Shown: piece after piece, positions 13,051 to 34,092 of the stretch
Numbering within the stretch: the stretch's first letter is position 1
Layout of the letters: each line of letters starts with the position of its first letter
The notes under the pieces: generated by a model
What the model was told of the DNA's origin: nothing
What the model saw: only the letters and a program-made list of their open reading frames with translations
Database searches by the model: none
Program-made: the position numbers and the translations under genes
Assembly (NCBI GenBank): GCA_049590495.1
Contig: JBAWCX010000161.1
Coordinates: forward strand, 1-34,256
Direction of reading: 5' to 3'
DNA: 34,256 nt
Source of the DNA: Candidatus Binatus sp.
GTDB lineage: Bacteria; Desulfobacterota; Binatia; Binatales; Binataceae

Positions 13051-13069
13051 AATTGCACCTTCATGTCAG
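12953..13069. repeat. left arm of 117-bp inverted repeat (partner 32756..32872)
   Basis: Hand alignment of the reverse complement against 32756..32872 gives 102/117 identical with no gaps. Confidence 0.8.
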
Positions 13070-14977: not shown

Positions 14978-15076
14978 TCGAAATCAATGTATGGTTACTG
15001 TTTTTGACGGTCAAACAGGCTTTATGGAGGTGTCGATTTCTCGGAAATGACGGCCCGAATCATTCCCGGCAAACAC

Positions 15077-16165: not shown

Positions 16166-16317
16166 CCCTTCTTCTTGGACCCGGGGGCGTCGGGACCGCT
16201 GATAGATTTCGGGGTGGCAGTGATCTTTGTGACGTTGCCGTAGTCCACCAATGTGGGCGGAACGTACTTCGTCAACTTCTGTTTCTTCTTCGCGTCGGCC
16301 GAGCGATTTTCTTTCAC
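16162..16317 (-). CDS. lasso peptide precursor (A peptide), 51 aa, not in the supplied ORF track
   Basis: GTG 16317 is preceded by AGGAG (16325-16329) at 7 nt. Product: MKENRSADAKKKQKLTKYVPPTLVDYGNVTKITATPKSISGPDAPGSKKKG. The leader has Y-17, P-14, L-12, G-8 and T-2 relative to a cleavage site after Ala34. The stop overlaps the kinase start by 4 nt (TTGA). Confidence 0.75.
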   Translation of the reverse strand: MKENRSADAKKKQKLTKYVPPTLVDYGNVTKITATPKSISGPDAPGSKKKG

Positions 16318-16392
16318 CAGAAAGCTCCTCTCATCGGAACCAGCTTGCAGAGAACCCAGCTCCGTTCATGGGGTTTTCCCCCACCCGACAGA

Positions 16393-16422
16393 ACCCTACC
16401 TGTTGCAACCGTGCCATGTCAA
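16393..16422 (-). promoter_or_regulatory. candidate sigma70-type promoter for the precursor-kinase-oxygenase operon
   Basis: On the minus strand: TTGACA (16422-16417), 18 nt, TAGGGT (16398-16393), about 75 nt upstream of the precursor start. The -10 is weak. Confidence 0.3.
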
Positions 16423-16827
16423 ACGCTTGACTGTGCCGCACGCAACCAATGCCTCCAGCGCCGCTTGACGCGTCTACACCAGCCTAGAAATCGCATGGCG
16501 TTTGCAAGCCGCCCGGGGTTATGGAAGGTTTTGAATCAGCTTTCAAAAAGCGAGACTTTCAGGTCGTTGCGTGTCTCGGACGCGAAACCAGGCAAATTTG
16601 ATGTCCAAAGTACACGCCCTCAATGAACTGCTAGAGCATGCCCGGGGCTCTCCGACAAGGAGCTCAGGTTTCGCGACGAACTTGCAGTAAACCCGGCTAT
16701 TGGCGGCAACTTTGCCCGAAGGTTCCAATTGATTCGTCGCCAGCCATGGCTGAGACGCAACCAGTAGATCGTCAGATTGTTGAAAATTGCGCCAATCAAA
16801 TGAGCAGCCTGCGGCTGAGACTCGCCA

Positions 16828-17484
16828 TCAGGCGTCCTTCAGCCGAATCACGGCGAGATCGTCGAGCAGCCGGTCCATGATCTCGCGGCGCGGCGCGGAC
16901 CACCTATCCGAAATCAGATTTCGGTGCTCGACCGAAAAACGCGCATCGTTTTCGAAAACGTCGACGTGAACGCAGTTGTGATACAAAATCCGGATCTTGT
17001 CCTTGCGGGCTGACTGGAGGACCCGTTCCTTGAAGCGGTTCACGACCGACTTCGCGAATGGATTAAACAGAAAAAACAAGGTGCCGTCCGCCGGAAGATT
17101 TTCGATTCCATCGCCGGCGATGATAGTCACGTTGCGATAACTTCGCAGCCGCACGCGCGTATGAGCCGCAATCTCCGGGTCCAGTTCCAGACCTACGATC
17201 CGATTGGACAGTCCCTTGCCCAGCCACCAATTGATCGCTCGGCCCTTGCCGCAGCCCACCACCACCAGTACGTCGTCCGCGGCGATCGCTTCATTTTTGA
17301 AAATCAGCGACATGGCCAGGTAGGAAATGTTGGCGGTCTTCTCTGCGCCAAGTTCGGGGAATCGGGTAGGGATATCTCCGCGCAGGATTTCTCCAAATCG
17401 CAGATCGTATGCGGCATTCCAGGTCAGCCGCATCAACTGATAGAGCCGGAGCCGGAGTTTGTTCATGCGCGTCTGTGGCGCCAA
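16828..17484 (-). CDS. class I SAM-dependent methyltransferase
   Basis: 218 aa with motif I, VLVVVGCGKGRAINW, then an acidic residue in GLELD, and motif-II-like LFFLFNPF. Confidence 0.75.
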   Translation of the reverse strand: MAPQTRMNKLRLRLYQLMRLTWNAAYDLRFGEILRGDIPTRFPELGAEKTANISYLAMSLIFKNEAIAADDVLVVVGCGKGRAINWWLGKGLSNRIVGLELDPEIAAHTRVRLRSYRNVTIIAGDGIENLPADGTLFFLFNPFAKSVVNRFKERVLQSARKDKIRILYHNCVHVDVFENDARFSVEHRNLISDRWSAPRREIMDRLLDDLAVIRLKDA

Positions 17485-18380: not shown

Positions 18381-21300
18381 TCAGGAGCCCTTGCCCTTGA
18401 GGGTTACTTTGTGCGGACTGGTCGGGTCGGAGCCGACGGTGCCGGCCAGCGTCGCGGTCTCGGTGACGGACTTGGCCGGCTGGAAGGTTACCGCGACGGT
18501 GCATGACGAGTTGCCCGCAAGCGTCGAGCCGCAGGTGCCGCCAGTGATCTTGAAGACGCCAGCATTGAGGCCGGTGACGGCGCTGTCAATCGACAGGGTC
18601 ATTGGCGACATGTTGGTGACGGTGGCGGTGAGCGTCTTCGACGACGTGCGCGGGACGGTGCCGTAGAGCAGCGACGTCGGCGCGACGGAGACCGGGATGG
18701 TCGCGCCGGTGGCCAGGGCTACATCGTAGGGCCCGAGCGAATCGGGACTGTCGGACACTGACAGCGTCGCCGATTCCGTTCCCAGCGCACCCGGCTTGAA
18801 GGTGACGGCCAGGGTGCACGAGGCCTGGGCCGCAAGCATGGCCGGCGCGACGGGGCAGGTGCTGCCGGTAATCGAGAAGTCGGCGGCGTTGGTCTCGCTG
18901 AAACTCTCGCTCAACGTCACCGGCCGCGACTGATTGTTGGTAACAGTGACATTGTTCGCCGCGCTAGAGCCGAACTTCACACTGCCGAACACCGAAGTGG
19001 TGCTCGAAGTACTCAAGCCGCCGATGCCGGTGCCGGAGAGCGCGACTTTCTGTGGGCTGGTCATGGAGTTGTCGCTGATCGCAAGCGTCGCGCTATGCAC
19101 CCCAAGCGAAGCGGGCGTGAATGCAACGCCAAGCGAGCAGGACTTACGAGGGGCGACCTTTACGGGAATCGCGCCGCAGGTTCCCATCCCGCTTAGCGCA
19201 TATTCACGATCTGACGTCGTCGCGCTCGAGATGATCAGCGGATGGGTCCTACCCTTGTTGGACACCGTCACGGTCTTGGCGGACGTCGCACCTACGGCCA
19301 CATCGCCGAACGCGAGCGAAGAAGCAGCCGACATCGAAGTAGTCGGGGTCGCGGCCGGCGTAGCAGTCATCGTCGTGGTGGCCGTCGTGGTTGCGGTCGC
19401 TGTAGCAGTCGCCGTTGCCGTCTGAGTCGCAGAGGCGGTCGCGGTTGTGGTCGGCGTTGCAGTCGATGTCGTGGTCGCCGTCGAAGTCTGAGTCGCGGTG
19501 GCGGTCGCGGTTATTGTCGGCGTCGAAGTTGCTGTGGCCGTCGCTGTCCGCGTCGAGGTGTTCGTCGACGTGGCAGTCAACGTTGGGGTGGCCGTCACAG
19601 TTGTGGTCGGCGATGCAGTTGATGTAGCGGTCGCAGTTGCCGTCTGAGTCGCCGTGGCGGTCGCCGTCGCCGTCTTTGTCGCGCTGGCGGTCGCGGTTAT
19701 GGTCGGCGTTGTGGTTGACGTGGCCGTCGCGGTCTGCGTCGAGATTATCGTCGCCGTGGTAGTTGGCGTCGCGCTCGATGTCGATGTCGAGGTCGCGGTC
19801 TTTGTCGCGCTGGCGGTCGCGGTCATGGTCGGCGTTGTGGTTGATGTGGCCGTCGCCGTTTGCGTCGAGGTTATCGTCGCCGTGGCAGTTGTCGTTGCTG
19901 TGGCAGTCGGCGTCGCGGTTGATGTAGCGGTGGCGGCCTTAGTCGCAGTTGTGGTCGGCGTCGCAGTTGATGTCGCAGTTGGCGTCGCGGTCGATGTCGA
20001 TGTCGAGGTCGCCGTCGCAGTCTTCGTCGCGCTGGCGGCGGTCGCGGTTGTGGTCGGCGTTGCGGTTGAGGTCGCGGTCGCCGTTGCCGTCTGAGTTGCC
20101 GTGGCGGTCGCCGTCGCCGTGGCAGTTAACGTTGCACTGTTAGTCGGCGACGCCGTCTTTGTCGCGCTGGCGGTCGCAGTCGCGGTCGGCGTTGCGGTTG
20201 ATGTGGCGGTCGCCGTTTGCGTCGAGGTTATCGTCGCCGTGGCAGTGGTCGTTGCTGTGGCAGTCGGCGTTGTGGTTGATGTCGAGGTCGCCGTTGCCGT
20301 CGCAGTCTTCGTCGCGCTGGCGGTCGCAGTTGCGGTCGGCGTTGCGGTTGATGTGGCGGTCGCGGTTGATGTGGCGGTCGCGGTTGTGGTCGGCGTCGCA
20401 GTCGATGTGGCAGTCGCCGTCTGAGTCGCAGTTGCGGTCGCCGTGCGCGTCGCGGTTGATGTCGCGGTCGCAGTGGCGGTCGCCGTGCTCGTGGAAGTGG
20501 ATGTCGGGGTCGGTGTCAATGTCGGGCTGGGATTTGGCGCGCCGGTGTAAGCGGTGGCGAACTTGGTCATGTCGGGGCTGCCCCATCCTGTCACCAGGTC
20601 GAAGCCCGCGCCGGCGGGATATCCCGTCACGCCATTGAAGGTGTTGTTGCCGCTGGTTACATCGATCAGCCCGTTGCCGGCCGCGCCCGCCTTGGCCAGC
20701 GCGTAAGTGGTCGGATTGATGAGACCGACACGCGCGGTGCCGGCTTTTTCGGCGATCACCCGGGTAAAGCCCGCCCATAACGGAGCCGACAGGCTGGTGC
20801 CGCCCCAGCAGCACTGGATAATTGCCTTGCCCGACGAGTCGGCGCCGATGAAGACGCCGGGCGACGACGCGATCATCGAGATATCGGGAATGTCGCGCAT
20901 ACCGTCGTTGAAGGTGCCGGTCTGCCACGACGGCTTCGAAAATATGTTACTGACGCCGCCGCCGCTCGAGTCCCACGCCGTTTCGATTCCGCCGGGCGCA
21001 ACCCCGATCACGCTGGTGTCGTTACCGGAGCTATTGAATTGAGGCGAGAACTGCGTTCCGCCGACGGCGGTGACGTGCGGACTGGCCGCCATCTCGCTCG
21101 GATTCAGGCTGGTGCCGGTTATGCAGCCATTGTCGACCGGATTGTATTGCAGCCCGGCCGCGCCCCAATCGCCCGAGCTTATGAACACCGATTGGCCCTG
21201 CGCCGCTGCTTGCGAAAACAACGTATCCAGTCCGGTGAAAAATGAATTCGTCGAGTTGCAGAAGATAAAACTGATGCTAACCGCGCCGCAGATATTGTCG

Positions 21301-22331
21301 GTGATCGCCGACGAGATCGAGGTGTAGAGGTCCGAGTTGACGTAAACGTGAATCGGCGTCGCCGGCGCTGTTGCGTGCGAGTAGTCGATATCCAGGTTCG
21401 TCTCGGTCTCGTCGCCGGTGGTGCCGGGCGAGGTGCCGGTGGGCAGAACGCGCGTGAGGTTCATCGCGGGGAAACCAAAGTTCGAATCGAACAGCACCGG
21501 CGCCGCATCGAGATAATCCGAGTCCTCGGCCAGCGCCACGCAATCGGGCGACGCGGTGCCGCTGTTGCCCCCAGCTATCAGCGGAGCTTCGTTGTAGAAC
21601 GTCTCGATGTCAAAAGGACCAAAGGCGCTCGATGAACCAGACTTGGCGCCCGGATCGAGCGGCGCACTCTCGTTTTCGTTGGACGGGCTCGGATCGGCCG
21701 TATCAGCAAACGCGAGCACCAGCTCGGTCGGCGAATGAGCGGTCGAGGGACTGATCGGGGGCGTCCGATGAAGTCCCGCGGGCGCGAGCGCGTGCATGTT
21801 GTCCAGTCCCCGGATGTTCGCAATCAGGCCGTCCAGTTCGGCCGGTACCGACGGATCGGATGTGTTCCCGAAATTCGCTCCATCGGTGACAATCTCGGTG
21901 GCAAAGGCCGCCTCGGCGGTCGCGACGTTGCCCTTGACCGCGATCGTTCGCGAGCGGCCATCGACTTTGACGATCGCAAAGCCCGCATCCGCGAGCCACT
22001 TCTTTACTGCCGCGATTTGCGCCGCGGTCGGGCCGAAGCGCTGGTTGAATTCCGTAGCGCTCAGCCAGTGATGGTACTGGGGCGAGTTGGGATCCTGCTG
22101 GGCGGCCAACAACTCCTCGAGCGCAGCCTGGTTGTGCAGGCCCAAAACTATTGTGAGTTCGAGCGGGGCGCTGCCGTCGGCCCGCATCGCTGCCAGATTG
22201 ACGATATCCGCGGGATGGTTCCCGTGAATTTTTGACGGCCCCGCAGCGTAAGACGATCCAGCCAGGGCCATGCCGCCCACCAGCACGCACACCACCGCCA
22301 CGACCCGAAGCGGGACTCGTCCGATTGACAT
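18381..22331 (-). CDS. secreted sedolisin (peptidase S53) with pro-kumamolisin activation domain, ~395-aa Thr/Ala-rich linker and three C-terminal Ig-like (choice-of-anchor-D/HYDIN-like) domains
   Basis: It has a signal peptide (VVAVVCVLVGGMALAGSSYA) and a pro-domain (PLELTIVLGLHNQAALEELLAAQQDPNSPQYHHWLSATEFNQRFGP). S53 motifs are ETNLDIDYSHATAP, FISSGDWGAAG and GGTSLSAPLWAGF. Three ~100-aa repeats follow the pattern FG.V..G...TVTV.N....L......F...G.TC...L....SC...V.F.P...G...A.L. Confidence 0.85.
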   Translation of the reverse strand: MSIGRVPLRVVAVVCVLVGGMALAGSSYAAGPSKIHGNHPADIVNLAAMRADGSAPLELTIVLGLHNQAALEELLAAQQDPNSPQYHHWLSATEFNQRFGPTAAQIAAVKKWLADAGFAIVKVDGRSRTIAVKGNVATAEAAFATEIVTDGANFGNTSDPSVPAELDGLIANIRGLDNMHALAPAGLHRTPPISPSTAHSPTELVLAFADTADPSPSNENESAPLDPGAKSGSSSAFGPFDIETFYNEAPLIAGGNSGTASPDCVALAEDSDYLDAAPVLFDSNFGFPAMNLTRVLPTGTSPGTTGDETETNLDIDYSHATAPATPIHVYVNSDLYTSISSAITDNICGAVSISFIFCNSTNSFFTGLDTLFSQAAAQGQSVFISSGDWGAAGLQYNPVDNGCITGTSLNPSEMAASPHVTAVGGTQFSPQFNSSGNDTSVIGVAPGGIETAWDSSGGGVSNIFSKPSWQTGTFNDGMRDIPDISMIASSPGVFIGADSSGKAIIQCCWGGTSLSAPLWAGFTRVIAEKAGTARVGLINPTTYALAKAGAAGNGLIDVTSGNNTFNGVTGYPAGAGFDLVTGWGSPDMTKFATAYTGAPNPSPTLTPTPTSTSTSTATATATATSTATRTATATATQTATATSTATPTTTATATSTATATSTATPTATATASATKTATATATSTSTTTPTATATTTATATITSTQTATATSTATPTATATASATKTASPTNSATLTATATATATATQTATATATSTATPTTTATAASATKTATATSTSTSTATPTATSTATPTTTATKAATATSTATPTATATTTATATITSTQTATATSTTTPTMTATASATKTATSTSTSSATPTTTATIISTQTATATSTTTPTITATASATKTATATATATQTATATATSTASPTTTVTATPTLTATSTNTSTRTATATATSTPTITATATATQTSTATTTSTATPTTTATASATQTATATATATATTTATTTMTATPAATPTTSMSAASSLAFGDVAVGATSAKTVTVSNKGRTHPLIISSATTSDREYALSGMGTCGAIPVKVAPRKSCSLGVAFTPASLGVHSATLAISDNSMTSPQKVALSGTGIGGLSTSSTTSVFGSVKFGSSAANNVTVTNNQSRPVTLSESFSETNAADFSITGSTCPVAPAMLAAQASCTLAVTFKPGALGTESATLSVSDSPDSLGPYDVALATGATIPVSVAPTSLLYGTVPRTSSKTLTATVTNMSPMTLSIDSAVTGLNAGVFKITGGTCGSTLAGNSSCTVAVTFQPAKSVTETATLAGTVGSDPTSPHKVTLKGKGS
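19340..20525 (-). repeat. in-frame low-complexity coding repeat (Thr/Ala/Ser/Pro, about 395 codons) inside the S53 gene
   Basis: The translation is almost only T, A, S and P with occasional Q, K and I. Longer units recur three times (TTTATATITSTQTATATST.TP..TATASATKTA). The DNA is an imperfect GCN/ACN repeat that creates long artefactual VAVAV ORFs on the other strand. Confidence 0.85.
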
Positions 22332-22469: not shown

Positions 22470-22830
22470 TTTTGGCCGTTTGTCAGCGCTTGGGCGGCTG
22501 GCGCCGGCCACAATCATTTGCGGCGGGACGAGGTACCAGGGCGGTGATGGCTCACCGTCATCGGGCACGCGAAGGGCAACTTGTGGAGCGTCGCCTTCTT
22601 TCGGAGCGAATCGATTCTGCTCTAAAGCTACTGGATCATGGTCGTGATGGACGTCTTCACCCGCATCATCGGTTTTGGCGTCGCCGCGGCGAGTCTCGAC
22701 CGTTCTGTTGTCTGCCGGATGTTCAATCGCGCGATCGCGAAGCAGACGCCGCGGCAATACCTCTCCTCAGATCACGATCCATTGCTTCGCTTTCATCGGG
22801 ATCGCCGCAGCATTAGCTGGGGCGATCCCG
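22470..22830 (+). mobile_element. central (integrase-core) remnant of an IS transposase, with in-frame stop
   Basis: The translation is WLTVIGHAKGNLWSVAFFRSESILL(stop)SYWIMVVMDVFTRIIGFGVAAASLDRSVVCRMFNRAIAKQTPRQYLSSDHDPLLRFHR. This is the conserved ..SLWS.DLFRCES..LRS.WVLVVMD.FTRRIIGFGV..DG..CRMFN.AI...P.YLSSD.DPL..FH.W pattern. It is in the same orientation as the remnant at 18107. Confidence 0.7.
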
Positions 22831-22897
22831 CTATGCGCTGATGTCGCGGTGATGTACCGGAATTGCTGACCCTCTCTAACGGCGCCGCGTAACGGAC

Positions 22898-24308: not shown

Positions 24309-26006
24309 ATGGAAATTCCGGCTGAAGCGGGACCATCACTTTTGGTCCCGGAGGCGCCAGACCTCCGACAAAACGGCGGAAGGCTGCCGCTTGGGCCGTT
24401 TCTCGCGTTGACTCTTCTTGTTCCTGCGGCGATCGTCATCGGCAATTTCGTCATTGGCGTACGGACACCCATCACTCTCGGGCCTGAAGACGACATGGTG
24501 CAAATCGATCGGGTGTGGCGTTTTGTTCAGAGCTACCATGTTGGGACTGACTTCCACGACCCGCATGGATTTGGCCCTTTTCAAGTTGCGGCCATCCTAT
24601 GGCGCCTGCTTGGACCGCACTATTACGTCCTGCGCGCGTCAGCCGATCTCTTTGCACTCGTCATTGTTCTTTGCAGCTGCGTAGTCGCGATGCGGCAGCT
24701 GCGCCACGCGCCAGGCCTTGCCGGGCTCTTTTGCATAACAGTTGCCTTCGAAGCGTCTGGCCCATCGATCTATGGATGGCTCCATGATTTCGGCATGTGT
24801 CTTTTTCATGACCGGCTGCTCATGTCCGCTTTGTCGGTCTTGTTCCTGCAGAGCTTCGCAAACGATTTGGATTCGCGGCGCGAGCGCGATTGTATCGATC
24901 TATTCACCGCCGCGTTCCTCCTGAACGTACTCTTCCTGGTGAAAATATCCGGTTTGGTCCTAGGACTCGCTGTCGTGGTGGGAGGATATATCGTTCGCGG
25001 CCGCTTCTCGCGAAGTCTCGCCAACATCGCTCTGGTATTGCTGTTTCTCGGTGTGATGGTGGCGACCGATTTTGTCATCACTGGAACCAGACTCTCCCCT
25101 GTCATCCAAGAGTATTGGCTGGCTGCTCAAGCCAGAGTGGGATCCTATTCGGTTCTTGATGCCCTGTGGTTCGCCTCTTTATTCCCGGTCTTTGGCGTAG
25201 TCGTGCTGATGGTTCTCTATGCAGTCTCGCGGCCGGGCAGCGGCGAGAATTTATGGCGCTGCTTCTTCATCGTCGCATTCTTTTGGGTGTGTCAAGTCGC
25301 GCTCAACATGAGCAACAGTTCCGCGCCCGCTCTCCTGTTTCTCGCCCCCGCCGCCGCCATTGCTGTGGTGACCTGGACAGACACATCCGACACAGAGCTC
25401 TTTTCGAGACATTTGTGGAGCAATTTTCATCCCCGAAGACTGCACGAAATTTCTGTCATTGAAGCAATCCCGCTGCTGATTGTTGCGCTGGTCCTCGCGC
25501 CGGAGGCACTAACATCACTCAGAGCCGTTAAGCTGGATTATTCAATCCCATCGGGGACCGTTAAGCCCATCGCAGTAACGGCGAACAAGGGAATCACGTT
25601 CGAAGTATTTCCAAAAGATCCGGACGTTATAGGCTTCGCGCTTTCCATAAATCGTTCAATTCAAGCAATTGAGGGTCTCGGTGCAAGCCGAGACGTGATC
25701 GCAAATCTGGATTTCATGAATCCTTTTCCAGCGTTGTTACTCAGTCAGTCCCCTAAGGGCGTGTCGGTCTATTGGGATTTTGGCAACAACGTACCCGTCG
25801 GTTACAAACCCGGTTGGCAAGAGATCATAGGCGACGCATGCATCGTTACCGAGCCGAAGCACGGGGTAGAGGCGGGATATTATTCCAAGCCTCTGATCGA
25901 TGCCGTCCAACCGCATCTCACGAGCGCATTCACACTCGTCTATGAAGATGAATTGTGGAGGATTTGGAAAAATAGCCGTTGTGCCTCCCGAAAACCTTAT
26001 CCGTGA
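24309..26006 (+). CDS. polytopic integral membrane protein with C-terminal soluble domain (possible GT-C-fold glycosyltransferase)
   Basis: 565 aa with many long hydrophobic segments. An acidic EDD sits in the first predicted loop (TLGPEDDMVQIDRVW). The last ~190 aa are hydrophilic. The family assignment is tentative. Confidence 0.55.
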   Translation: MEIPAEAGPSLLVPEAPDLRQNGGRLPLGPFLALTLLVPAAIVIGNFVIGVRTPITLGPEDDMVQIDRVWRFVQSYHVGTDFHDPHGFGPFQVAAILWRLLGPHYYVLRASADLFALVIVLCSCVVAMRQLRHAPGLAGLFCITVAFEASGPSIYGWLHDFGMCLFHDRLLMSALSVLFLQSFANDLDSRRERDCIDLFTAAFLLNVLFLVKISGLVLGLAVVVGGYIVRGRFSRSLANIALVLLFLGVMVATDFVITGTRLSPVIQEYWLAAQARVGSYSVLDALWFASLFPVFGVVVLMVLYAVSRPGSGENLWRCFFIVAFFWVCQVALNMSNSSAPALLFLAPAAAIAVVTWTDTSDTELFSRHLWSNFHPRRLHEISVIEAIPLLIVALVLAPEALTSLRAVKLDYSIPSGTVKPIAVTANKGITFEVFPKDPDVIGFALSINRSIQAIEGLGASRDVIANLDFMNPFPALLLSQSPKGVSVYWDFGNNVPVGYKPGWQEIIGDACIVTEPKHGVEAGYYSKPLIDAVQPHLTSAFTLVYEDELWRIWKNSRCASRKPYP

Positions 26007-26194
26007 TGACGCGCGGGGTAGCATATGGTGATGAAGCGGCCGATGGTCGCGCCTTTGACTCAACTGCTGGATACTATCCGGTAACGGCCACGTTGAGCGG
26101 CTCATCGGATCGATTCGGCGCGAAAGCCCCCCATCAATCTGTGGGTCGCAAAATCACCATGGGAAACTTTAGAAACCCTCGCGCTACCGGGGAT

Positions 26195-26234
26195 AGTCCC
26201 CGATTTTCGCGCTCTCTCTGCAAAAATCGAAAAC
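26195..26234 (+). repeat. 40-nt element, copy 2 (partner 8765..8804 next to tRNA-Ser)
   Basis: AGTCCCCGATTTTCGCGCTCTCTCTGCAAAAATCGAAAAC matches the partner at 31/40 and conserves the same TTTTCG/CGAAAA pairing. Confidence 0.6.
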
Positions 26235-26348
26235 GGTAACCAGGAATTGTATTGTTGCGCGTGCAAGTGATAGGGCATGAGCTTGGGACTGCCAGTCCCC
26301 CGGTATTTGGAGTAACCCATCCAGATGAGAGTCGAGCGCAGTCAAAAC

Positions 26349-27359
26349 ATGCTTGTCACGCTGACACGAACGGGTATTTCAACCCACACCACGCCATCGC
26401 GATTGCACTTAGCCCGTGAGCATTTCGATCAACACAACTATCTGCGGATACCAGGTTTCATCGAACCCGCGATGCTCAGGGTGATTCAGCTTTCTCTGCA
26501 CAACGCTGCGTTCAAAATAAGAGAGAACGAGGTCGGGCGCGATCTAACGCTTGCGGACAACCCGTTGACCAATGTCTTTAAAATCCTGATGAACGATCCG
26601 AAGCTGTTCCGACTGATTCGACGGGTGACCGGGAGCGGTCCCATTGGATGCTTTGCTGGCAGGTTGTACCAGATGGTCGCGCGGCAGGGGCTAGCGTTCA
26701 CCTGGCACGATGACATGCTCAACGATCGAAAGGTCGCGATCTCGATCAACCTGAGTGACGCAGGCTACCGCGGCGGCACGCTGCAGATTCGCGATACCTC
26801 CCGCGGCGTGCGCGAGGATGTTCCGAACCTGGGTTTTGGCGACGCAATCATCTTCCGCGTTGCCGAGCATCTCGAACACCGCGTCACCCCGGTCGTAGGA
26901 AGAATTCCGAAGACCGCCGTTACCGGATGGTTCTGCTCGCGACCTAGATACTCCACGATTCATCGCGAGATGGTCGCCTTGTCCGAGTCAGCGATCGCTG
27001 TGCGCGCCGTCCGGAAACACGAGAGTCTCGCGTTGCCCAAACCAGACGACACAGTCAAACTCCCGAGCGCCGTCGTTTCTCAAACCTCGGGGCGCGAGAC
27101 GTTTGTAGCAAACATTGGCACCGCGATGTGCTACGGCTTGAATCAAACCGGCAGCCGGGTCTGGGAGCTCCTGGCACAAGGCTACGGGATGCGCACGATT
27201 GCAGGTACCATCGCAAGAGAATACGGGGTCCCGCGCCGCGAAGTGGAACATGACGTCCTCGCGCTGGCCCATCAGCTCGCACAACGCGATCTGATCAAGG
27301 TAGTTCGCAACACTGCCCCGCGACGAGTACGCATGATAGCAGGGGCGGCCAGCCGCTAG
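26349..27359 (+). CDS. fusion protein: prolyl-4-hydroxylase-like 2OG-Fe(II) oxygenase + C-terminal PqqD/RRE domain (array copy 1)
   Basis: N-terminal domain: FTWHDDMLNDRKVAISINLSDAGYRGGTLQI...GDAIIFRVAEHLEHRVTPV..R.T..GWF (HxD...H, P4H-like). C-terminal domain: ETFVANIGTAMCYGLNQTGSRVWELLAQGYGMRTIAGTIAREYGVPRREVEHDVLALAHQLAQRDLIKVV, a PqqD pattern. The start is taken at MLVTLTR by homology with the paralog; the ORF opens at 26325. Confidence 0.8.
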   Translation: MLVTLTRTGISTHTTPSRLHLAREHFDQHNYLRIPGFIEPAMLRVIQLSLHNAAFKIRENEVGRDLTLADNPLTNVFKILMNDPKLFRLIRRVTGSGPIGCFAGRLYQMVARQGLAFTWHDDMLNDRKVAISINLSDAGYRGGTLQIRDTSRGVREDVPNLGFGDAIIFRVAEHLEHRVTPVVGRIPKTAVTGWFCSRPRYSTIHREMVALSESAIAVRAVRKHESLALPKPDDTVKLPSAVVSQTSGRETFVANIGTAMCYGLNQTGSRVWELLAQGYGMRTIAGTIAREYGVPRREVEHDVLALAHQLAQRDLIKVVRNTAPRRVRMIAGAASR

Positions 27360-27366
27360 ACAAGCG

Positions 27367-27399
27367 ATGCTTGCCAAACTGACACGAATCGGTACTTCT
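27367..27399 (+). pseudogene. 5' stump (11 codons, MLAKLTRIGTS) of array copy 2 of the oxygenase-RRE gene
   Basis: The junction ..gcgATGCTTGCCAAACTGACACGAATCGGTAC aligns with the starts of copy 1 (ATGCTTGTCACGCTGACACGAACGGGTAT) and copy 3 (ATGCTTGCCACGCTTACACGACTTGGGAT). Homology stops about 15 nt before the stop codon of the membrane-protein gene. Confidence 0.7.
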
Positions 27400-27413
27400 T
27401 GCTCCGGTGCAGG

Positions 27414-29090
27414 CTACTTCAGCTCCCATGCTGAGGTGGTGGGTCCAAATTCGGGAGTCAGATCCTGGACCTTGTGATAGTGTGCGTGCAGATAGTCGCG
27501 GACTGGTTGAATGTGATCGCTTGAAGCGCCGCAAAGTGACTCGTCAAGGTCACCATTCCACAAGATAAATCGCGGCGCGTGAAGCTCGAGGTCGCGAAGC
27601 ACGTCGTCGACCTGTTCCGGGCGGGTGAACTCGCATGGCGTCAGCCACCAGACCTTGGTGGGATTCCTAAGACCCAGCCAAAAGTAAAGATTGCTGCCGA
27701 GCGCCTGAAACACGTAGTCACCCTGATGAGTTCGCGCGGCGAACCATTGAAGCTGGGAAAGCGGGTCGTCAACCGAGAGCGCGATGCGCCCGCTCGGGGT
27801 TTCGATGGAGTAATACCAGTTACGCTGCGACGCGCGAATGTCGGAAACCATTGCGAGTACCGCAATCACCGTCAGGATTCGTATGACAATCACTCCCAGC
27901 TTCGTTTCGATACTCCATACTGCGACCAGGAACGCAGGGAGCGAAACTACTGCGATCCTCCAGTAGCCCGCCGAATTGACGATCGACGCGAACATCGCCG
28001 CGCCGACGAAGTTCAGTAGAACTATGCGGCGCCAGGTATCCCCGCGCGACGATTCAGGCGAGGGCTTGAACCAGATTGCTGACACAATGTAGACCCACGG
28101 GACAAGCAACCCCAATATCAGGTCGCGAACCAAGTGAAAGTCGCGATGCATCGCGCTCGATACGATTTCGATCAATACGTAGTTCGACCATCCGGCGCCC
28201 AACCCCTCACTCCAATATTTGAGGGGGAAGACTATAGTTGAATTGAAGAATGCTGTCGGGCCGGCTAGCCACGAAAAGTAAGCTACACACGCGGCGACGA
28301 TAATCGCGGTGGGAGTGAGGAAGCTCGCGCATTCTTTAATGAGAGTGGTTGTGTCTCTCCCGTCTTTCCAAGCCTCCCAGACCAGAAAACCGAGAACTCC
28401 GACCGTGGCGAACGCACCATGGTGCTGCGCGAAACATGTCGCCACGCCGATGAGTGCTCCCGCAACAAGAAGGCGCGAGCGCGATCGCTCACGGGCCAGG
28501 ATTGCGATCGCAAGCACAATCGTGAGAGCGGCGTACCAGTGCGGCGACGCGTCCAGGTACGTACGATACGCGGCGAACAGAAACAGAAATCCGGAAAATA
28601 TCGCGGCCTCACGCGACATCAACATGCCGCCAAGCCAAACTGCGGCCGCGAACAAACCTAGCCCCAGTACTACTAGGCAGGCATTGGGTATCCATGCCCG
28701 CGCGCCGAATCGGTCGATTAGAAATGCGTAGAGGTAATCGATGCCCGGCAGGTAGTACTCAAAGAAGTCGCGGTAGATTACCTGTCCCGACGAGAGCCTG
28801 GCTGCGGACGCTAGGAATATCTGGTCATCGTAACCACGCGCCATCGGAATTGCGGGCCGAACGAATAGATTGAGAACCAGGTAGGCCGCTGCAAATAGAA
28901 ATGCGGCGAGTAGTCCCCAGCGGCGGCGCCCGAAGAATCGCGTCGAACTTCGGGACTCGGCGTTCATTGTCGCTCCGCTTCGATGCAAATGATTGAAGCG
29001 CCTCACGCGTGTCGGCGGCCAACCTTTCACATTTATCGCAGTTGAACAATGCGGAACCGCTGCCCGCTGGTTGGACTCGGCTCGCGACAT
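27414..29090 (-). CDS. GT-C-fold (ArnT/PMT-like) membrane glycosyltransferase candidate
   Basis: Many TM segments. An acidic motif sits in the first loop (ARGYDDQIFLASAARLSSGQVIYRDF), as in lipid-linked-sugar transferases. There is a C-terminal soluble domain. The likely true start is ATG 28967 (MNAESRSS..RRRWGLLAAFLFAAAYL). Confidence 0.65.
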   Translation of the reverse strand: MSRAESNQRAAVPHCSTAINVKGWPPTRVRRFNHLHRSGATMNAESRSSTRFFGRRRWGLLAAFLFAAAYLVLNLFVRPAIPMARGYDDQIFLASAARLSSGQVIYRDFFEYYLPGIDYLYAFLIDRFGARAWIPNACLVVLGLGLFAAAVWLGGMLMSREAAIFSGFLFLFAAYRTYLDASPHWYAALTIVLAIAILARERSRSRLLVAGALIGVATCFAQHHGAFATVGVLGFLVWEAWKDGRDTTTLIKECASFLTPTAIIVAACVAYFSWLAGPTAFFNSTIVFPLKYWSEGLGAGWSNYVLIEIVSSAMHRDFHLVRDLILGLLVPWVYIVSAIWFKPSPESSRGDTWRRIVLLNFVGAAMFASIVNSAGYWRIAVVSLPAFLVAVWSIETKLGVIVIRILTVIAVLAMVSDIRASQRNWYYSIETPSGRIALSVDDPLSQLQWFAARTHQGDYVFQALGSNLYFWLGLRNPTKVWWLTPCEFTRPEQVDDVLRDLELHAPRFILWNGDLDESLCGASSDHIQPVRDYLHAHYHKVQDLTPEFGPTTSAWELK

Positions 29091-29117
29091 TTACAAGCGC
29101 AAACCAGTAGACTAAAA

Positions 29118-29201
29118 TTCGCACAACACGATCTGGTCAAAGTAGTTCGCAACACTGCCCTGCAAAAAATCTGTACGATATCTGCGTCGGCCTGCAGCTA
29201 A
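29118..29201 (+). pseudogene. 3' stump (27 codons + stop) of array copy 2 of the oxygenase-RRE gene
   Basis: It encodes FAQHDLVKVVRNTALQKICTISASACS-stop, against LAQRDLIKVVRNTAPRRVRMIAGAASR-stop at the end of copy 1. The following spacer and the ATGCTTGCC start of copy 3 are also colinear with the copy1/copy2 junction. Confidence 0.75.
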
Positions 29202-29208
29202 CCAACAG

Positions 29209-30180
29209 ATGCTTGCCACGCTTACACGACTTGGGATTTCATCTGACGTCACGCCATCCCAATTGCGCGCGGCCCGTGAGCATTTCGACCAGCACAACTA
29301 TCTGCGAATGCGAGGCTTCATCGATCCCGGCCTCTTCCGCGTGATTCAGCGGTACCTCCGCGGCGCGGTGTTCGAAAGACAATTCTGGAACAGTGGGCAC
29401 GATCTCACGATCTCGAATAGCCCCCTGGCCGATGTCGTCCACGTTCTGATGAACGATCCAAAATTGCTCCGGCTAGTTGGGCAAGCCACGGGATGCGGTC
29501 CAATCGCATCCTTTAAGGGCCGCATTTACCGAATGGTCGCGCGCAAGGGACTGAGGTTCGATTGGCACCCTGACATAAAAAACGATCGGAAAGCCGCGAT
29601 CTCCGTCAACTTGAGCGACGCGGAATATGGCGGCGGGACCCTCGAAATTCGCGACAATTCCAGCGGCGTACGCGAGGTAGTTCCGAACCTCGGGCCGGGC
29701 GACGCGGTAATTTTCCGTGTCGCAGAGCATCTCGAGCACCGTGTCACCCGAGTGACGGGGAAGGTTCCGAAAACCGCCATCGCCGGATTCTTCTGCTCAC
29801 GACCACGGTACCGTTCAGTACATCGGGAGTTGGTGGCCCGGTCCGAATCCGCTATCGCTGCAGGTGCCGGCCGAAAAAAGCGGCTCGCGTTTCCCTCACC
29901 AAATGACGTCGTGAAAATCTCGGCCGCAGTCATATCTCAAACCGCACGGCGCGAGACCTTTGTGGCGAACGTCGCAACCGCAATGTGTTACGGCCTGAAT
30001 CAAACCGGCGGCCGAATTTGGGAACTCTTCGCCGAGGGCCTCGCGATGCGCTCGGTAGCAGACACCATCGCACGCGAGAATGGCGCGCCGCGTCGCGACG
30101 TCGAGCGGGACGTCCTCGCACTCGCCCGCCAACTCGCGCAACGTGATCTGATCAAGGTAGTTCGCGCCCAGTTAGATTAG
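29209..30180 (+). CDS. fusion protein: prolyl-4-hydroxylase-like 2OG-Fe(II) oxygenase + C-terminal PqqD/RRE domain (array copy 3)
   Basis: 323 aa and colinear with copy 1. It has FDWHPDIKNDRKAAISVNLSDAEYGGGTLEI, HLEHRVTRV, and the RRE part ETFVANVATAMCYGLNQTGGRIWELFAEGLAMRSVADTIARENGAPRRDVERDVLALARQLAQRDLIKVV. Confidence 0.8.
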   Translation: MLATLTRLGISSDVTPSQLRAAREHFDQHNYLRMRGFIDPGLFRVIQRYLRGAVFERQFWNSGHDLTISNSPLADVVHVLMNDPKLLRLVGQATGCGPIASFKGRIYRMVARKGLRFDWHPDIKNDRKAAISVNLSDAEYGGGTLEIRDNSSGVREVVPNLGPGDAVIFRVAEHLEHRVTRVTGKVPKTAIAGFFCSRPRYRSVHRELVARSESAIAAGAGRKKRLAFPSPNDVVKISAAVISQTARRETFVANVATAMCYGLNQTGGRIWELFAEGLAMRSVADTIARENGAPRRDVERDVLALARQLAQRDLIKVVRAQLD

Positions 30181-30374
30181 ATTGCCACGGATCTTGATCG
30201 GACTGTCCTGGCCTTGTCTGGTAGTTCCGACATGTCACCTTGTTGACGAATGCCAGCGAATCGGAAGGCAGGTCGACGGCATCGTGACGCAAGGTTGGCA
30301 ATGAATACCGGGCTTGTATAACGTGATTCCCGAAAAGTCTTGCCCGACGTCACGCGCTGTGCGCGACGATTGAA

Positions 30375-31571
30375 ATGAATTCTCCCGTATCACGGACGCC
30401 TGACACCGAGCGCGAGCTGTTGCTGCGATGCTGCGCGGCGTCCGGGCCGATGACGGATCGCGCCGCGATGGGGGAGTGCGCCGGGCGCCGCGTCGATTGG
30501 GATCGATTTCTCGCGCTGGCCGATCGTAACCGCGTCACGCCAATGGTGGGCGCGCGTCTCGGCGCCGAAGGCATTGCCAATCCTCCTCCATACGTCGCCC
30601 GCGCGCTCCGGTTCAGCTACGAGATCAACGCACTGCGAAACAACTATCGCGCCGGCTGCGTAACGGAAATCGTCGATTCCTTTGCGGCCGGCGCCGTCCC
30701 CGCGATTGCGATCAAGGGTCCGGCGCTTGCGATTGCTGCGTACGGTGACGTGGCAATGCGGGTGTTCGACGACCTGGATTTCATGGTGCGGCTTGCGGAT
30801 CTGCGGCGTGCGGCCAAGGCGCTGGAGCGAGTCGCCTACGCGTCGGCAGTCTATCGGCCCGAGGTTGTCGAAAGCGGATTTTTTCCCGACACGTCGCTCG
30901 ACTTCTCACGCGAGGACAGCGTCGTGGACCTCCATTGGGCGTTGTCACCTGGATACTTCCCGTTTGCTCCCGAAGGCGAGCAAGTTTGGAATCGTACCGT
31001 CGAGATCGAGCTGCTCGGCAGGCGCGTCCGCGTGCTCGGTCCCGCCGACTCGATTCTGTTTCAGGCCTGCCATGGCTCCAAGCACGGCTGGATGACGCTC
31101 TCCCAGATCTGCGACTTCGCCCACCTGCTCGCGACCGCCACGACCGTCAACTGGACCAGCCTTCTCGACGACGCCCGGCGGACGCAAAGCCTTAGAATGG
31201 TCCTGCTCGCGGTGCACTTGACGCATTCGCTCGAGCTTTGCGAGGTGCCCGCCGAATTGCTCGACGCTGCCCGCCGCGATTCGCACATCGCGTCGCTCAG
31301 CCGGCGCGTTACGCAGGGTATTTTCGATTCGAGGCGTGCGGTTAAGTTGGACGATTGGTCGATAGCACTCGGAACCATCGAATCGATGCGCGGCCGCGCC
31401 AGATACATCGTGCACCGCATGATTACCCCCAAGATGAGCGACCGCGCGCTGATGCCCTTGCCGCGCGCGCTATACCCGCTGTACTACCTGGCGCGTCCGC
31501 TGCTAGTGGCGATCAAGCATCGCCAACGGATGTTTGGCAAACGCGAGACTGCTGGGCTGCCGCGGATTTGA
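30375..31571 (+). CDS. uncharacterised nucleotidyltransferase family protein (NTP_transf_5 / PF14907-like) of the kind found in kinase-containing lasso clusters
   Basis: 398 aa with DWDRFLALADRNRVTPMV, AIKGPALAIAAYGDVAMRVFDDLDFMVRLADL and VVDLHWAL, the pattern of this family. Confidence 0.7.
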   Translation: MNSPVSRTPDTERELLLRCCAASGPMTDRAAMGECAGRRVDWDRFLALADRNRVTPMVGARLGAEGIANPPPYVARALRFSYEINALRNNYRAGCVTEIVDSFAAGAVPAIAIKGPALAIAAYGDVAMRVFDDLDFMVRLADLRRAAKALERVAYASAVYRPEVVESGFFPDTSLDFSREDSVVDLHWALSPGYFPFAPEGEQVWNRTVEIELLGRRVRVLGPADSILFQACHGSKHGWMTLSQICDFAHLLATATTVNWTSLLDDARRTQSLRMVLLAVHLTHSLELCEVPAELLDAARRDSHIASLSRRVTQGIFDSRRAVKLDDWSIALGTIESMRGRARYIVHRMITPKMSDRALMPLPRALYPLYYLARPLLVAIKHRQRMFGKRETAGLPRI

Positions 31572-31891
31572 AGATGTGCGGCTACTATTCAAGTGGCGGC
31601 TTTTGGATCAGCGCTTCGGCCACTTCCAGGAACTTCCCAGCCTTGAGCTCGCGTCGATGGTGGATTCGGATCGATTTCGCTACATGACGAAGTCGCTGGC
31701 TCAAGGTCGGCAGCAATCCCGCCGGTTGGCCCGGGAAAAGCTCATCTCTTACGTGAGGCCGGGGCACGACACCCCTGCTGACAAACTCGGATCCGATGCT
31801 GATGCGCGGCCCCGACGGCTGATGACACTTCGAGCCCCAATGAATCATCTGAGGATCCCAGCCAAGGACTGAGCGGGCCGCCGCCGGCAGA

Positions 31892-32043
31892 GCCATGCAT
31901 GAGTGCAACAGTTCCAGACGAAAGCTTCGAGACGACGCGATGCAGTCCTAGTTCCCGGATGCGATAGCGAGCCGGTCGCGGCGTACACCACTAAACGACG
32001 CATCCGAGCTTCGAGTTTCGGAGCCGAGTTTCCACTCGAGCCT
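31892..32043 (+). pseudogene. remnant of a second HprK-like kinase gene (frameshifted, stop-containing)
   Basis: One frame reads AMHECNSSRRKLRDDAMQS-stop. The next frame reads VPGCDSEPVAAYTTKRRIRASSFGAEFPLEP. Compare SSHPSIKLRDDGIQFLKPGGDSEPVAEYTAKRRVPASSFGTAFPLEP in the intact kinase (15077..16165). A weaker resemblance (LLTNSDPMLMRGPDG vs FLTDDCLVIDEQGG) may extend it back to about 31770. Confidence 0.6.
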
Positions 32044-32076
32044 GGCCGTCATCGATGCCGGTTTCCACTTCAATGC

Positions 32077-32601
32077 TCAGGGATTTTCAACTGGAACTCG
32101 CTCGATACCATCAGGCTTCCCAACACAATGATCAGCGACGGGCATCGGTGCGTAGCTTCGATGTTCACCTTCGCCGGTAACAATTCTGTCGCCACATTCA
32201 AGCCATGCATGACCGGTCAGAGCATCAGCTGAATTTTTTGCGACTCCCAGTCGGATTTGGCTGCTGACGCCGCGACGCGCGAGCATCTCGCGCCCGGCGA
32301 TCGCTCTCACGAGGCAATTCTTAGCAGTCGGTACGATACGGCCGGCCGTCTCGACCGCCCAGCCGATTCTTGCAGCATCCGTATCGGCAAACACCGCCTC
32401 AGTCTGGCGCGCCACGGGTTGCAGAATTTTGCGGATCGGAACGAACATCACCGTAATTCGGGCCTTGATGACCGAGATTATGGCCGATGCGAGCAGCCAG
32501 CGATCAGGCGCCGCCAGCTTGAAGAATTTACGCAACCGCGTTTGCATGAGGAGACCTGTCATTGACCTTAGACGTACTAGGTCATCAGTGGCAACTCCCA
32601 T
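32077..32601 (-). CDS. lasso peptide B2 protein (transglutaminase-core-like Cys protease, leader peptidase)
   Basis: AKNCLVRAIAGREMLARRGVSSQIRLGVAKNSADALTGHAWLECGDRIV is the Cys...His...Asp core pattern of stand-alone B2 proteins, preceded by a hydrophobic helix. An alternative start at ATG 32562 has a better SD. Confidence 0.8.
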   Translation of the reverse strand: MGVATDDLVRLRSMTGLLMQTRLRKFFKLAAPDRWLLASAIISVIKARITVMFVPIRKILQPVARQTEAVFADTDAARIGWAVETAGRIVPTAKNCLVRAIAGREMLARRGVSSQIRLGVAKNSADALTGHAWLECGDRIVTGEGEHRSYAPMPVADHCVGKPDGIERVPVENP

Positions 32602-32755
32602 TGTATCGAGAGCGTCACGGATTTAGACTAGCACACTGTTCGAGGGGGAACCCAATTTTTGGGCAACCGCCGACCGCGAGTTGGGGTGCAAACGGCTACT
32701 AATTCCAGATCGTACCCAAGCCCCGCGGCGTTCGGTGAAGCCGTGCACGTGACGC

Positions 32756-32872
32756 CTGGCGTGAAGGTATAATTTTGTCGCTTATCCTTGACGAGCATCG
32801 CGAATACCTGAACAACCGTCCACGAGTTTCGGCATTCGAGCGGGCGATTTCCGAAGTAGTCAGGCCTGGCGA
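32756..32872. repeat. right arm of 117-bp inverted repeat (partner 12953..13069)
   Basis: See the left arm. It covers the SD (GAAGG), the TTG start at 32775 and the first ~33 codons of the methyltransferase gene. Confidence 0.8.
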
Positions 32873-33422
32873 CGTGCTCCTTGACTCGGGATCGGGCACC
32901 GGGATACCAGAGCTCTTCGCGCTGAAAGCCCTCGCGTCGCGTGTCTAAGCGATAGACGCCAGCGGACTCACGCAGCTGGAGCGCGAAATCTTCGCGGCTA
33001 ACGGATACGCGGATCGCGCGGTTTGCATTAAAGGGTTATCAACTCGCGTCAAGCTGCCGGAGAAAGTAAACGTCATCATCGGCGACTTGATCGGGCGCTT
33101 CGGGATTGACGGTGGACTAGTCGAGTATTTCGCCTACGCGCGCCATCGGATGGCGCAGCCCGACGTGCGCCCGGTTCCATCCAGGGTTGATCTGTATATT
33201 GCCCCGGTCGAAGCACCACAGACCTGCCGGAAGTTGATTTCTGGAAAACGTCTCCCGCGGGCCGGCGAGATCCGCATCTTTACCCGGACCGAGTCGCCAC
33301 CATGCACCGCGGTCGGCGGATCAACCGGAAAGAATACCCGTGTAGCTCTCTCCTTGAGCCGCCGGACACGGAAGCAGCGCGGTGCCTCACTCCGCGATCG
33401 CGCTGGGCGAAGCGTAGAGTAA
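32775..33422 (+). pseudogene. PRMT-like class I SAM methyltransferase gene with in-frame TAA (32946-32948) and degenerate 3' part
   Basis: A single frame encodes LSLILDEHREYLNNRPRVSAFERAISEVVRPGDVLLDSGSGTGIPELFALKALASRV(stop)AIDASGLTQLEREIFAANGYADRAVCIKGLSTRVKLPEKVNVIIGDLIGRFGIDGGLVEYF... This gives the H..ML.D..R...Y..AI motif, motif I (LD.G.GTGI) and post-I/II motifs. Resemblance fades after about 33250. Confidence 0.6.
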
Positions 33423-33582
33423 TTCTTCGAACATTCAGGGTGGGTCGTTGTTGACCAGGGCGCCTAAGCCCAACCTCTACCGTCGCTATCTGCGCAGCCG
33501 CGGATCGCTGGAGCTGGGCTGCATAGGAATGACCCGGGTGTTCAGCGTCTTCGCCCGACCGCTCCTCGGCATACTCGCTGTG

Positions 33583-34092
33583 AGCGAACTCCATGGCTTG
33601 ATTGCGAAGAAAAGTCCGCCACGATGGTCCCGGCCGTCGGCTTCGTGGAGGCATGTAGCGCGACACGGTGGCTTCGGAGACGCTGAAACCGAGCATCAGA
33701 AGTTCACCGTGGATCCGTGGCGCACCCCACAGAAAGTTGTCGCCGGCCATCCGTGCGATCAGATGACGGACGTCCCTGGAAACCCGCGGACGCCCACCGC
33801 GCCAGCGACCCCGAGATCGATATCGCCAAAGCGTCGACCAGCCGTCACGACGCCAGCGCAAGACCGTCTCGGGCTGGACGATGATCAGGCTCTCGCGCCA
33901 TTGGGGCCACCAACGCGAGAACAAAATCCAAAAAAGCCGATCCCAACGGCGAAAGCACGGGCGACGAGTTCCGCTGCGCTCCAGCACTGCAATTTGATGG
34001 CGCAGGGCGATCCACTCCAACAGCAACGCGGTGAGAGTTCGAGGTTCGCCGTTTGGTACCTCCGCGAGTGATTCGCTTGTCGGCATCCTCAC
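33583..34092 (-). mobile_element. 5' half of an rve/integrase-core IS transposase gene, truncated before the catalytic core
   Basis: ..ALRHQIAVLERSGTRRPCFRRWDRLFWILFSRWWPQWRESLIIVQPETVLRWRRDGW..RGGRPRVSRDVRHLIARMAGDNFLWGAPRIHGELLMLGFSVSEATVSRYMP...PSWRTFLRNQAMEFA is the conserved N-terminal half. The rest of ORF 33280..34092 is unrelated Arg-rich sequence. Confidence 0.7.

Follow-up and report, generated by a model that had tools for sequence, protein, structure and literature searches.

How does a single gene for a membrane protein come to stand, in reverse orientation, in the place of the middle member of a tandem gene array? The question is raised by a contig of 34,256 nucleotides from Candidatus Binatus sp. 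(GenBank assembly GCA_049590495.1, contig JBAWCX010000161.1), the whole of which we call the window. It carries two genes, copy 1 and copy 3, in which a 2OG-Fe(II) oxygenase is fused to a PqqD-like recognition element (RRE) of the kind known from peptides that ribosomes synthesize and that are then modified post-translationally (RiPPs). Between them lie two stumps that look like the head and the tail of a further gene of the same kind, and the stumps enclose an oppositely oriented gene for a putative membrane glycosyltransferase of the GT-C fold. An earlier note, written from the letters of the window, had described a cassette-type replacement of the middle copy by a mechanism that the sequence does not reveal. 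Our analysis points to a real lost gene; the path that led to its replacement would be more ordinary, i.e. illegitimate recombination in a locus that is prone to deletions.

The junctions around the inserted gene

Copy 1 occupies 26349..27359 on the forward strand (an alternative start, an upstream ATG, lies at 26325) and copy 3 occupies 29209..30180 on the same strand. Both carry the Pfam domains PF13640 and PF05402 and, besides these, show weak NCBIfam matches to lasso-type PqqD. The C-terminal tail of copy 1 is long and ends with ...VVRNTAPRRVRMIAGAASR; that of copy 3 is short (..VVRAQLD).

The stop codon of copy 1 (27357-27359) is followed by a spacer of 7 nt, as read from the sequence (27360..27366, forward strand), and then by the ATG of stump A (27367..27398, forward strand). 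Stump A corresponds to the first 10.7 codons (MLAKLTRIGTS) of the putative lost gene, and shares 81% identity with the head of copy 1 and 77-78% with that of copy 3. The homology stops at 27398/27399. It resumes at 29119, or at 29116 when the alignment is made against copy 3, with stump B (29119..29201, forward strand), i.e. the last 27 codons and the stop (..AQHDLVKVVRNTALQKICTISASACS*) of the putative lost gene, with a tail of the copy 1 type. Stump B aligns with 27277-27359 without gaps and in frame, at 78% identity and with the stop at the equivalent position (29199-29201). The second spacer (29202..29208, forward strand) also has 7 nt and leads to copy 3.

Taken as a whole, the junctions form a direct repeat of 122 nt (27277-27398 and 29119-29240) that spans the last 27 codons, the stop, the 7-nt spacer and the first 10 codons of an oxygenase-RRE gene. 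The repeat is gapless and 76% identical, which is far better than chance (self-BLAST E 1.2e-18). Identity drops to 20-27% in the 15 nt beyond each repeat end, therefore the breakpoints are sharp. The repeats enclose 1720 bp with one long open reading frame (ORF) on the minus strand, 27414-29090. At the left edge the homology of stump A ends 15 nt (27399..27413) short of the GT-C stop codon, and these 15 nt are 27% identical to their counterpart in copy 3, i.e. at chance level. The earlier note had the array restart after the stop of copy 1, lose its homology at about 27399 and regain it at 29118; both the positions and the abruptness of the ends are borne out.

These junctions are not assembly artefacts. 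They are spanned by single contigs from independent soil metagenomes with at most 2 differences, the stretch is present in 20 public soil or other metagenome runs, and a contig of a metagenome-assembled genome (MAG) from a different project (CAWDXY010000003, locus L013) is colinear across them. Logan contigs, which do not reach down to rare variants, confirmed the arrangement.

The array and its lost member

Copies 1 and 3 are 67% identical at the protein level and 72% at the DNA level, with a synonymous divergence (dS) of ~0.95. In a neighbour-joining tree of 48 homologues copy 1 falls into clade 1 and copy 3 into a different clade, which also holds the oxygenase-RRE genes of loci L027 and L033 that have a divergently oriented GT-C gene as neighbour. 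Judged by their sequences, the two copies are ancient paralogues and not recent tandem duplicates. The ratio of nonsynonymous to synonymous divergence (dN/dS) is 0.15-0.25 for copy 1 (against L013 and L014) and 0.28 for copy 3 (against L013). There are 64 database homologues of copy 1, and its tail is kept among the orthologues (PRRVR in P0028, P0031, P0042 and P0038). Among all homologues read, a 'VVRNTA' tail is seen only in copy 1, in its orthologue P0028 and in stump B.

The distribution of differences along the repeat is conspicuously uneven. Stump B and copy 1 differ at 3 of the 42 nt that code the conserved end of the RRE and at 16 of the 41 nt of the variable tail; stump A and the head of copy 3 disagree at 7 of 31 sites. 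Expressed as divergence, this makes 7% for the conserved block, 39% for the tail and 23% for the head, and the contrast between 3/42 and 16/41 is significant (binomial P 0.002, Fisher 0.0006). If a neutral duplicate were young enough for 7%, it could not show 39% next door, and if it were old enough for 39%, it should not have kept 93% in a non-coding stump; stump B would therefore have evolved mostly within a gene under selection, i.e. as part of a third paralogue that was akin to copy 1 at its 3' end. The repeat and its pattern of divergence point to the stumps being remnants of a real third oxygenase-RRE gene that has lost ~0.9 kb of its interior, which is in accordance with the earlier note.

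The stumps themselves look non-functional, because one relative (L014) has lost stump B and because the differences between lineages accrue at about the synonymous rate (3/114 against L013, 2/31 against L014). Stump A is conserved in L013 and L014. The frame of stump A forms an ORF of 36 aa that runs into the antisense of the 3' end of the GT-C gene; the idea of a precursor peptide found no support here and was dropped.

We also note a block of ~32-42 nt at the end of the RRE (..AQRDLIKVVR), located at 27277-27308, 29119-29150 and 30134-30165, which is 93-94% identical in DNA among copy 1, stump B and copy 3. This is far above the overall identity of the genes, 72%, and could be explained by local gene conversion or by a nucleotide-level constraint.

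In more distant relatives (57-73% protein identity) there is just one oxygenase-RRE gene, in some cases amid housekeeping genes. In two MAGs (L021 10001-10953, L022 10001-20920) the gene is seemingly frameshifted, i.e. tblastn gives two segments, and the corresponding database proteins (P0070, P0078) are without the RRE. In L022, NTP_transf_5 and B2 genes lie 7-9 kb from the oxygenase-RRE gene. In L029 there are two tandem oxygenase-only genes that are distant (~41% identity).

The inserted gene

The open frame of the GT-C gene reaches up to 29090 on the minus strand, as the earlier note had it. The extension is not conserved, however: gene callers and homologues place the start at the internal M42, so that the gene itself probably begins at 28967 and extends over 27414..28967 (minus strand, 517 aa). 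The homologues in an alignment of 18 sequences mostly have 510-545 aa, near this length. Everything beyond 28990 is missing from L014. Together with the start at M42, this divergence of L014 gives the insert a 5' flank of ~150 bp and a 3' flank of 15 bp, so the description of a gene with almost no flanking DNA was overstated. The upstream segment (28968..29118) resembles neither the oxygenase-RRE genes nor the L033 intergenic region, and it shows no unusual secondary structure.

The protein reaches no Pfam or NCBIfam model, the PF13231 (PMT_2) model at its gathering score included, and a sequence-profile search against the PDB gave no match. There are 19 clear homologues (26-48% identity), and weaker matches extend to proteins bearing PF13231. 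Comparison of the family with an alignment of such proteins by hhalign gives a probability of 99.8% and an E value of 9e-30 over 487 columns. The AlphaFold2 model (predicted local distance difference test score, pLDDT, 82.8; predicted template modelling score, pTM, 0.86) has ~13 membrane helices within residues 3-382, an alpha/beta domain at 384-517, and a long first loop with two short helices. When the model was compared with the PDB by Foldseek, the top 20 matches were all GT-C enzymes (STT3, ArnT 5f15, AglB, PglB, AftA, ALG9), with E values from 9e-7 to 4e-4, a probability of 1.00 and, for ArnT 5f15, template modelling (TM) scores of 0.61/0.59.

The first loop deserves attention. Among 18 family members D47 is nearly invariant, and in the motif YRDFF the residues Y65, D67 and F68 are invariant and R66 is nearly so. 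In the model both elements are located between helix 1 (3-34) and the helix at 92-116; these would be the conserved acidic first-loop residues that are expected of a GT-C enzyme. By its profile, predicted fold and loop residues the inserted gene is a genuine GT-C glycosyltransferase, and the reading of the earlier note, a GT-C-like protein with an ArnT/PMT-like acidic motif, was correct. The dN/dS values of 0.21-0.31 (against two relatives, L013 and L014) are similar to those of copies 1 and 3; because of these values we regard the gene as functional and under purifying selection.

A sigma70-like pair of hexamers (TTTACA-17-TAAAAT, 10/12) is found at 29090-29118 on the forward strand, exactly at the right edge of the insert and directed towards stump B and copy 3. 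As a promoter-like match to the consensus only, it could drive copy 3 after the interruption of the operon.

A second large polytopic membrane protein (24309-26006, forward strand, 565 aa) is encoded directly upstream of copy 1 and belongs to no Pfam or NCBIfam family. Its N-terminal loop (..TPITLGPEDDMVQIDRVWRF..) is loosely like the first loop of the GT-C family; paralogy with the GT-C protein was considered and rejected, as BLASTP gives no match and hhalign a probability of only 4%.

Relatives and the age of the arrangement

The relative L013 (96% DNA identity) has exactly the same arrangement, both stumps included; given that the stumps look non-functional, the shared structure leaves their status as remnants untouched. 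L014 (94%) shares copy 1, stump A and the GT-C gene with the window. The stretch from 28991 to ~30283 of the window, with the DNA upstream of the GT-C gene, stump B and copy 3, is absent from L014, whose sequence joins on to the NTP_transf_5 gene. In L012 (92.6%) the end of copy 1 is joined directly to the last ~100 bp of the NTP_transf_5 gene, and ~27366-31470 is missing. L013 lacks 31757-32128, and the window in turn lacks ~4 kb that L014 keeps. The locus is demonstrably prone to kb-scale deletions with breakpoints inside genes, since L012, L013, L014 and the window have suffered different losses of 0.4-4 kb. The dS values between the lineages are 0.05-0.17. On the evidence of these sequences the replacement is old: at least three related Binatia-like MAG lineages separated only after it, and it has stayed fixed.

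Decayed remnants are seen at 31585..32042 (minus strand): a truncated PhyH-like gene (31585-31908) and an HPr-kinase-like fragment of 122 nt (31921-32042). The fragment is 79% identical to window 15359-15481 and 91% identical to L014. Both genes are of full length in L012 and L014 (the PhyH-like protein having 234 aa and PF05721), and the absence of the ~4 kb from the window leaves these two pieces behind.

The lasso-type cluster of the window and of L013 consists of two inverted parts (window 10644-17484 and 24309-32900) with an S53 peptidase gene and insertion sequence (IS) remnants between them. In L014 (10001-21008) the order is contiguous: oxygenase-RRE, GT-C, NTP_transf_5, PhyH-like, an orf, HprK-like, PhyH, B2 and then the cyclase. 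Between L014 and the window, identity is only 75-77% for the HprK-like and PhyH genes as against 91-94% for their neighbours, which suggests mosaic recombination.

Where the GT-C family is found

The homologues of the GT-C gene occur in several kinds of surroundings. In L027/L033 a 44%-identical homologue stands divergent from an oxygenase-RRE gene of the copy 3 clade, 270 bp apart, and in L030 lasso B2 and cyclase genes directly adjoin a homologue with 42% identity. Others lie beside an H+-pyrophosphatase (H+-PPase) gene (L004, L031) or beside genes for GT2 and the sulfatase family (L005, L035), and in L008 the surrounding genes are unrelated. Adjacency to oxygenase-RRE or lasso genes in 3 of ~9 independent contexts would, we infer, far exceed chance, and argues that the GT-C gene is a recurrent partner of the cluster and not stray cargo. 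An unrelated intruder does not fit these neighbourhoods; the search among relatives that the earlier note proposed did find the gene in other contexts but did not find an uninterrupted three-copy array.

In the GT-C tree the window gene is not the specific sister of the L033 gene, and the similarity between the intergenic regions of the window and L033 is at the level of shuffled sequences. Given the tree and the unrelated intergenic regions, the GT-C gene may have stood beside copy 3 ancestrally or may have come there independently.

In addition, the family is repeatedly near PF00884 sulfatase-family genes (L005 and L035; L004 within 7 kb) or an H+-pyrophosphatase (L004, L031), which hints at a general role in envelope modification. 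One locus, L010 (1526-5208, 9866-11076), holds three paralogues of the family.

Origin of the arrangement

In our opinion the best explanation, with a probability of roughly 0.6, is that the middle oxygenase-RRE copy was gutted and a GT-C segment put in its place by illegitimate recombination in a deletion-prone lasso-type locus. The ancestral locus would have had at least three oxygenase-RRE genes head to tail, each linked to the next by stop, 7-nt spacer and ATG. The middle gene, with its tail of the copy 1 type, would then have lost ~0.9 kb of its interior so that 32 nt of the head and 83 nt of the tail persisted, and the replacement would have been a segment of 1.72 kb with the oppositely oriented, functional GT-C gene and ~150 bp of its own upstream DNA. 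The order of events that we infer as the likeliest is an illegitimate, i.e. not site-specific, insertion into the middle copy, with deletions trimming the site afterwards; local duplication and subsequent deletion may be another path. In a locus so prone to deletions, one insertion with trimming, or duplication with deletion, suffices as an explanation. The rearrangement is of an ordinary kind and nothing in it calls for a new cassette mechanism.

Several points weigh against this explanation. No donor context for the GT-C segment was found: the closest homologues are just 44-48% identical, and the upstream regions of eight GT-C homologues share no sequence with the 150 bp of the window. An intact three-copy array was not found in 10 genome loci, 7 metagenome loci and the contexts of the database matches, and no intact orthologue of the lost middle copy was seen in related genomes among the loci scanned. 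The heterogeneity test is based on 83 nt only, and gene conversion of the 42-nt block, which is 94% identical between copy 1 and copy 3 too, could mimic the pattern. That L014 lost stump B and copy 3, and did not lack them from the start, is set by parsimony only. Finally, the divergent GT-C/oxygenase pair of L027/L033 is a hint that the place beside copy 3 could be the ancestral one, which would mean a more complex path.

This last point leads to a serious rival, which is still unlikely in our estimation, namely duplication and deletion from an ancestral pair. A divergent pair as in L027/L033 would have been formed ancestrally by the GT-C gene together with either copy 3 or an oxygenase gene upstream, and nothing would have been imported; a tandem duplication of GT-C, intergenic region, oxygenase gene and the next head would have been followed by deletions of one oxygenase body and of the extra GT-C gene. 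The pair of a GT-C gene on the minus strand and a copy 3-clade oxygenase-RRE gene on the plus strand of L033 and L027, with its 270-bp intergenic region, is just what such a history would start from, the GT-C tree is compatible with co-divergence, the GC content is the same as in the flanks, and deletions are frequent at the locus. However, at least 3 events are needed, and upstream of copy 1 neither a second GT-C copy nor its intergenic region has left a trace. Moreover, the intergenic regions of the window and L033 are without homology, the window gene is not specifically sister to the L033 gene, and the copy 3-clade genes of L019, L022 and L034 have no GT-C neighbour.

A two-copy array that never had the body of a middle gene is distinctly less probable. 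Here the GT-C segment would have entered the head of copy 3 and duplicated ~122 bp of the junction, either by Campbell-type integration of a circle with homology to the junction or by template switching during replication. The structure is formally just this, a 122-bp direct repeat around an insert with full genes on both sides; both spacers have 7 nt, the tail of stump B is uniquely copy 1-like, and a three-copy array is seen nowhere among the loci scanned. What speaks against it is the strongly non-uniform divergence of the repeat (7%, 39% and 23%). If the event were recent enough for the 7%, the tail and the head would be too diverged, the tail of copy 1 being conserved among orthologues; if it were old enough for the 39%, the conserved block would be too similar for a non-coding stump. 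In addition, the longest identical run between the repeats is ~19 nt, a poor substrate for homologous integration.

The suggestion of a mobile cassette, be it integron-like or the cargo of a transposon, that was inserted site-specifically or by transposition is very improbable. It would account for a single gene with short flanks and opposite orientation, and the wider edges of the locus do carry a weak rve-like fragment (22638-22841) and a transposase-like ORF (33280-34092) recognized by sequence only. The boundaries, however, show none of the expected marks. The repeat search found no terminal inverted repeats, direct repeats or target-site duplication at 27399 or 29118, the boundaries have no attC-like hairpin and fold no better than shuffled sequences, and a terminator scan of them found none. 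No integrase or transposase appears within 5 kb or in 24-33 kb by ORF list and Pfam. The GC profile shows an insert that equals its flanks, without a foreign signature, and other members of the family sit in stable, unrelated chromosomal contexts without shared flanks. The earlier note was right that neither a transposase nor obvious terminal repeats can be seen; its cassette-type mechanism does not stand, given the ~150 bp of upstream DNA, the missing attC-like or IS-like features, the unremarkable GC content and the deletion-prone locus.

An assembly chimera or a chance similarity, which a metagenome-derived source with paralogous repeats might lead one to suspect, is hardly credible, as single contigs from independent runs and studies cross both junctions with at most 2 differences, 20 public metagenome runs hold the stretch, the L013 contig from a different project is colinear and the repeat has an E value of 1e-18.

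The cluster around the array

The genes around the array are in accordance with a lasso-type cluster. Downstream of copy 3 lies an NTP_transf_5 nucleotidyltransferase gene (30375..31571, forward strand; PF14907, E 1e-53), which belongs to a lasso-type accessory context. It is followed by a gene for the lasso peptide B2 leader peptidase (32077..32601, minus strand; NCBIfam NF033537, 82 bits against a cutoff of 33; Pfam PF13471). In the other part of the cluster an Asn-synthase-like cyclase (10644-12557, by an Asn_synthase match) and, by family search, a PqqD protein (12594-12872), present besides the fused RREs, are encoded. The window contains all three components by which a lasso cluster is recognized, i.e. 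B2, an RRE (B1/PqqD) and an Asn-synthetase-like cyclase, and it also carries a PhyH and an HPr-kinase-like gene of a lasso-type cluster. Small ORFs were listed near 12.9-13.1 kb and 32.6-32.9 kb, none of which was assigned as a precursor peptide.

A few further observations concern the wider window. An inverted repeat of 117 nt (12953-13069 and 32756-32872, 87% identity) codes on both sides for what looks like the truncated N-terminus of a methyltransferase-like protein (MSLILDEHR.YL..RPRVSAFERA...VVRPG). An S53 peptidase of the sedolisin/kumamolisin type (18381-22331, minus strand, 1316 aa) has C-terminal Ig-like/ASH domains, and within its gene the stretch 19340-20530 (~1.2 kb) consists of degenerate Thr/Ala-rich repeats. 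On either side of the second part of the cluster stand the two features mentioned above, of which the integrase-core (rve) fragment lies on the forward strand and has a Pfam E value of 0.015; the transposase-like ORF is on the minus strand, has no Pfam match and contains a motif, ..APRIHGELLMLGFSVSEATVSRYM.., that was judged by eye to resemble a helix-turn-helix.

Comparison with known systems

The arrangement shows how duplication, insertion and frequent deletion reshape the RiPP accessory loci of uncultured Binatia-like soil bacteria, and it carries a warning, i.e. that a 'clean' gene replacement is no evidence of a cassette mechanism. A GT-C family that has no Pfam model and that three independent lineages place next to oxygenase-RRE or lasso genes offers a modest new lead, namely towards a membrane-bound glycosylation or immunity step tied to hydroxylated lasso-type peptides. 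To our knowledge, GT-C enzymes beside RiPP genes of the oxygenase-RRE/lasso kind have not been described before.

Any functional tie of the GT-C enzyme to the oxygenase-RRE/lasso system is a matter of conjecture. The enzyme might glycosylate the hydroxylated, exported peptide from a lipid-linked sugar at the membrane's outer face, or confer self-immunity through an ArnT-like change of the envelope; we consider such a partnership doubtful. If it were real, the placement of the GT-C gene inside the oxygenase array would have been selected, and in the case of peptide glycosylation this would be the first tailoring step of the GT-C type in a RiPP pathway.

The hydroxylation, phosphorylation and glycosylation of lasso peptides by tailoring enzymes, i.e. 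the Fe/2OG hydroxylase CanE, HPr-kinase homologues and the nucleotidyltransferase PsmN, are documented (PMC8498205). The window resembles such sets with its B2, cyclase, PqqD, HPr-kinase-like, NTP_transf_5 and 2OG oxygenase genes. It differs from them in that the oxygenase is fused to its own PqqD/RRE and was once present in multiple paralogous copies, and in that relatives often hold the oxygenase-RRE gene as a singleton among housekeeping genes. Our search of the literature on lasso peptides of the Binatota returned nothing.

The inserted protein, in turn, is like the GT-C enzymes of the ArnT/PMT_2 kind (PF13231; ArnT 5f15, PglB 5ogl, STT3 6s7t) in being polytopic, with an acidic first loop and a C-terminal soluble alpha/beta domain. 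Unlike the solved structures, to which it is just 8-13% identical, it has no direct match to a family model.

The locus as a whole resembles the remnants of illegitimate recombination in decaying biosynthetic gene clusters, i.e. the head and the tail of a paralogue around unrelated DNA, without signatures of mobile elements and with deletions in neighbouring lineages. It differs from such scars in being unusually tidy, in that purifying selection acts on both paralogues and on the incoming gene, all of them intact, and in that the incoming gene is of a kind that is found with this type of cluster elsewhere.

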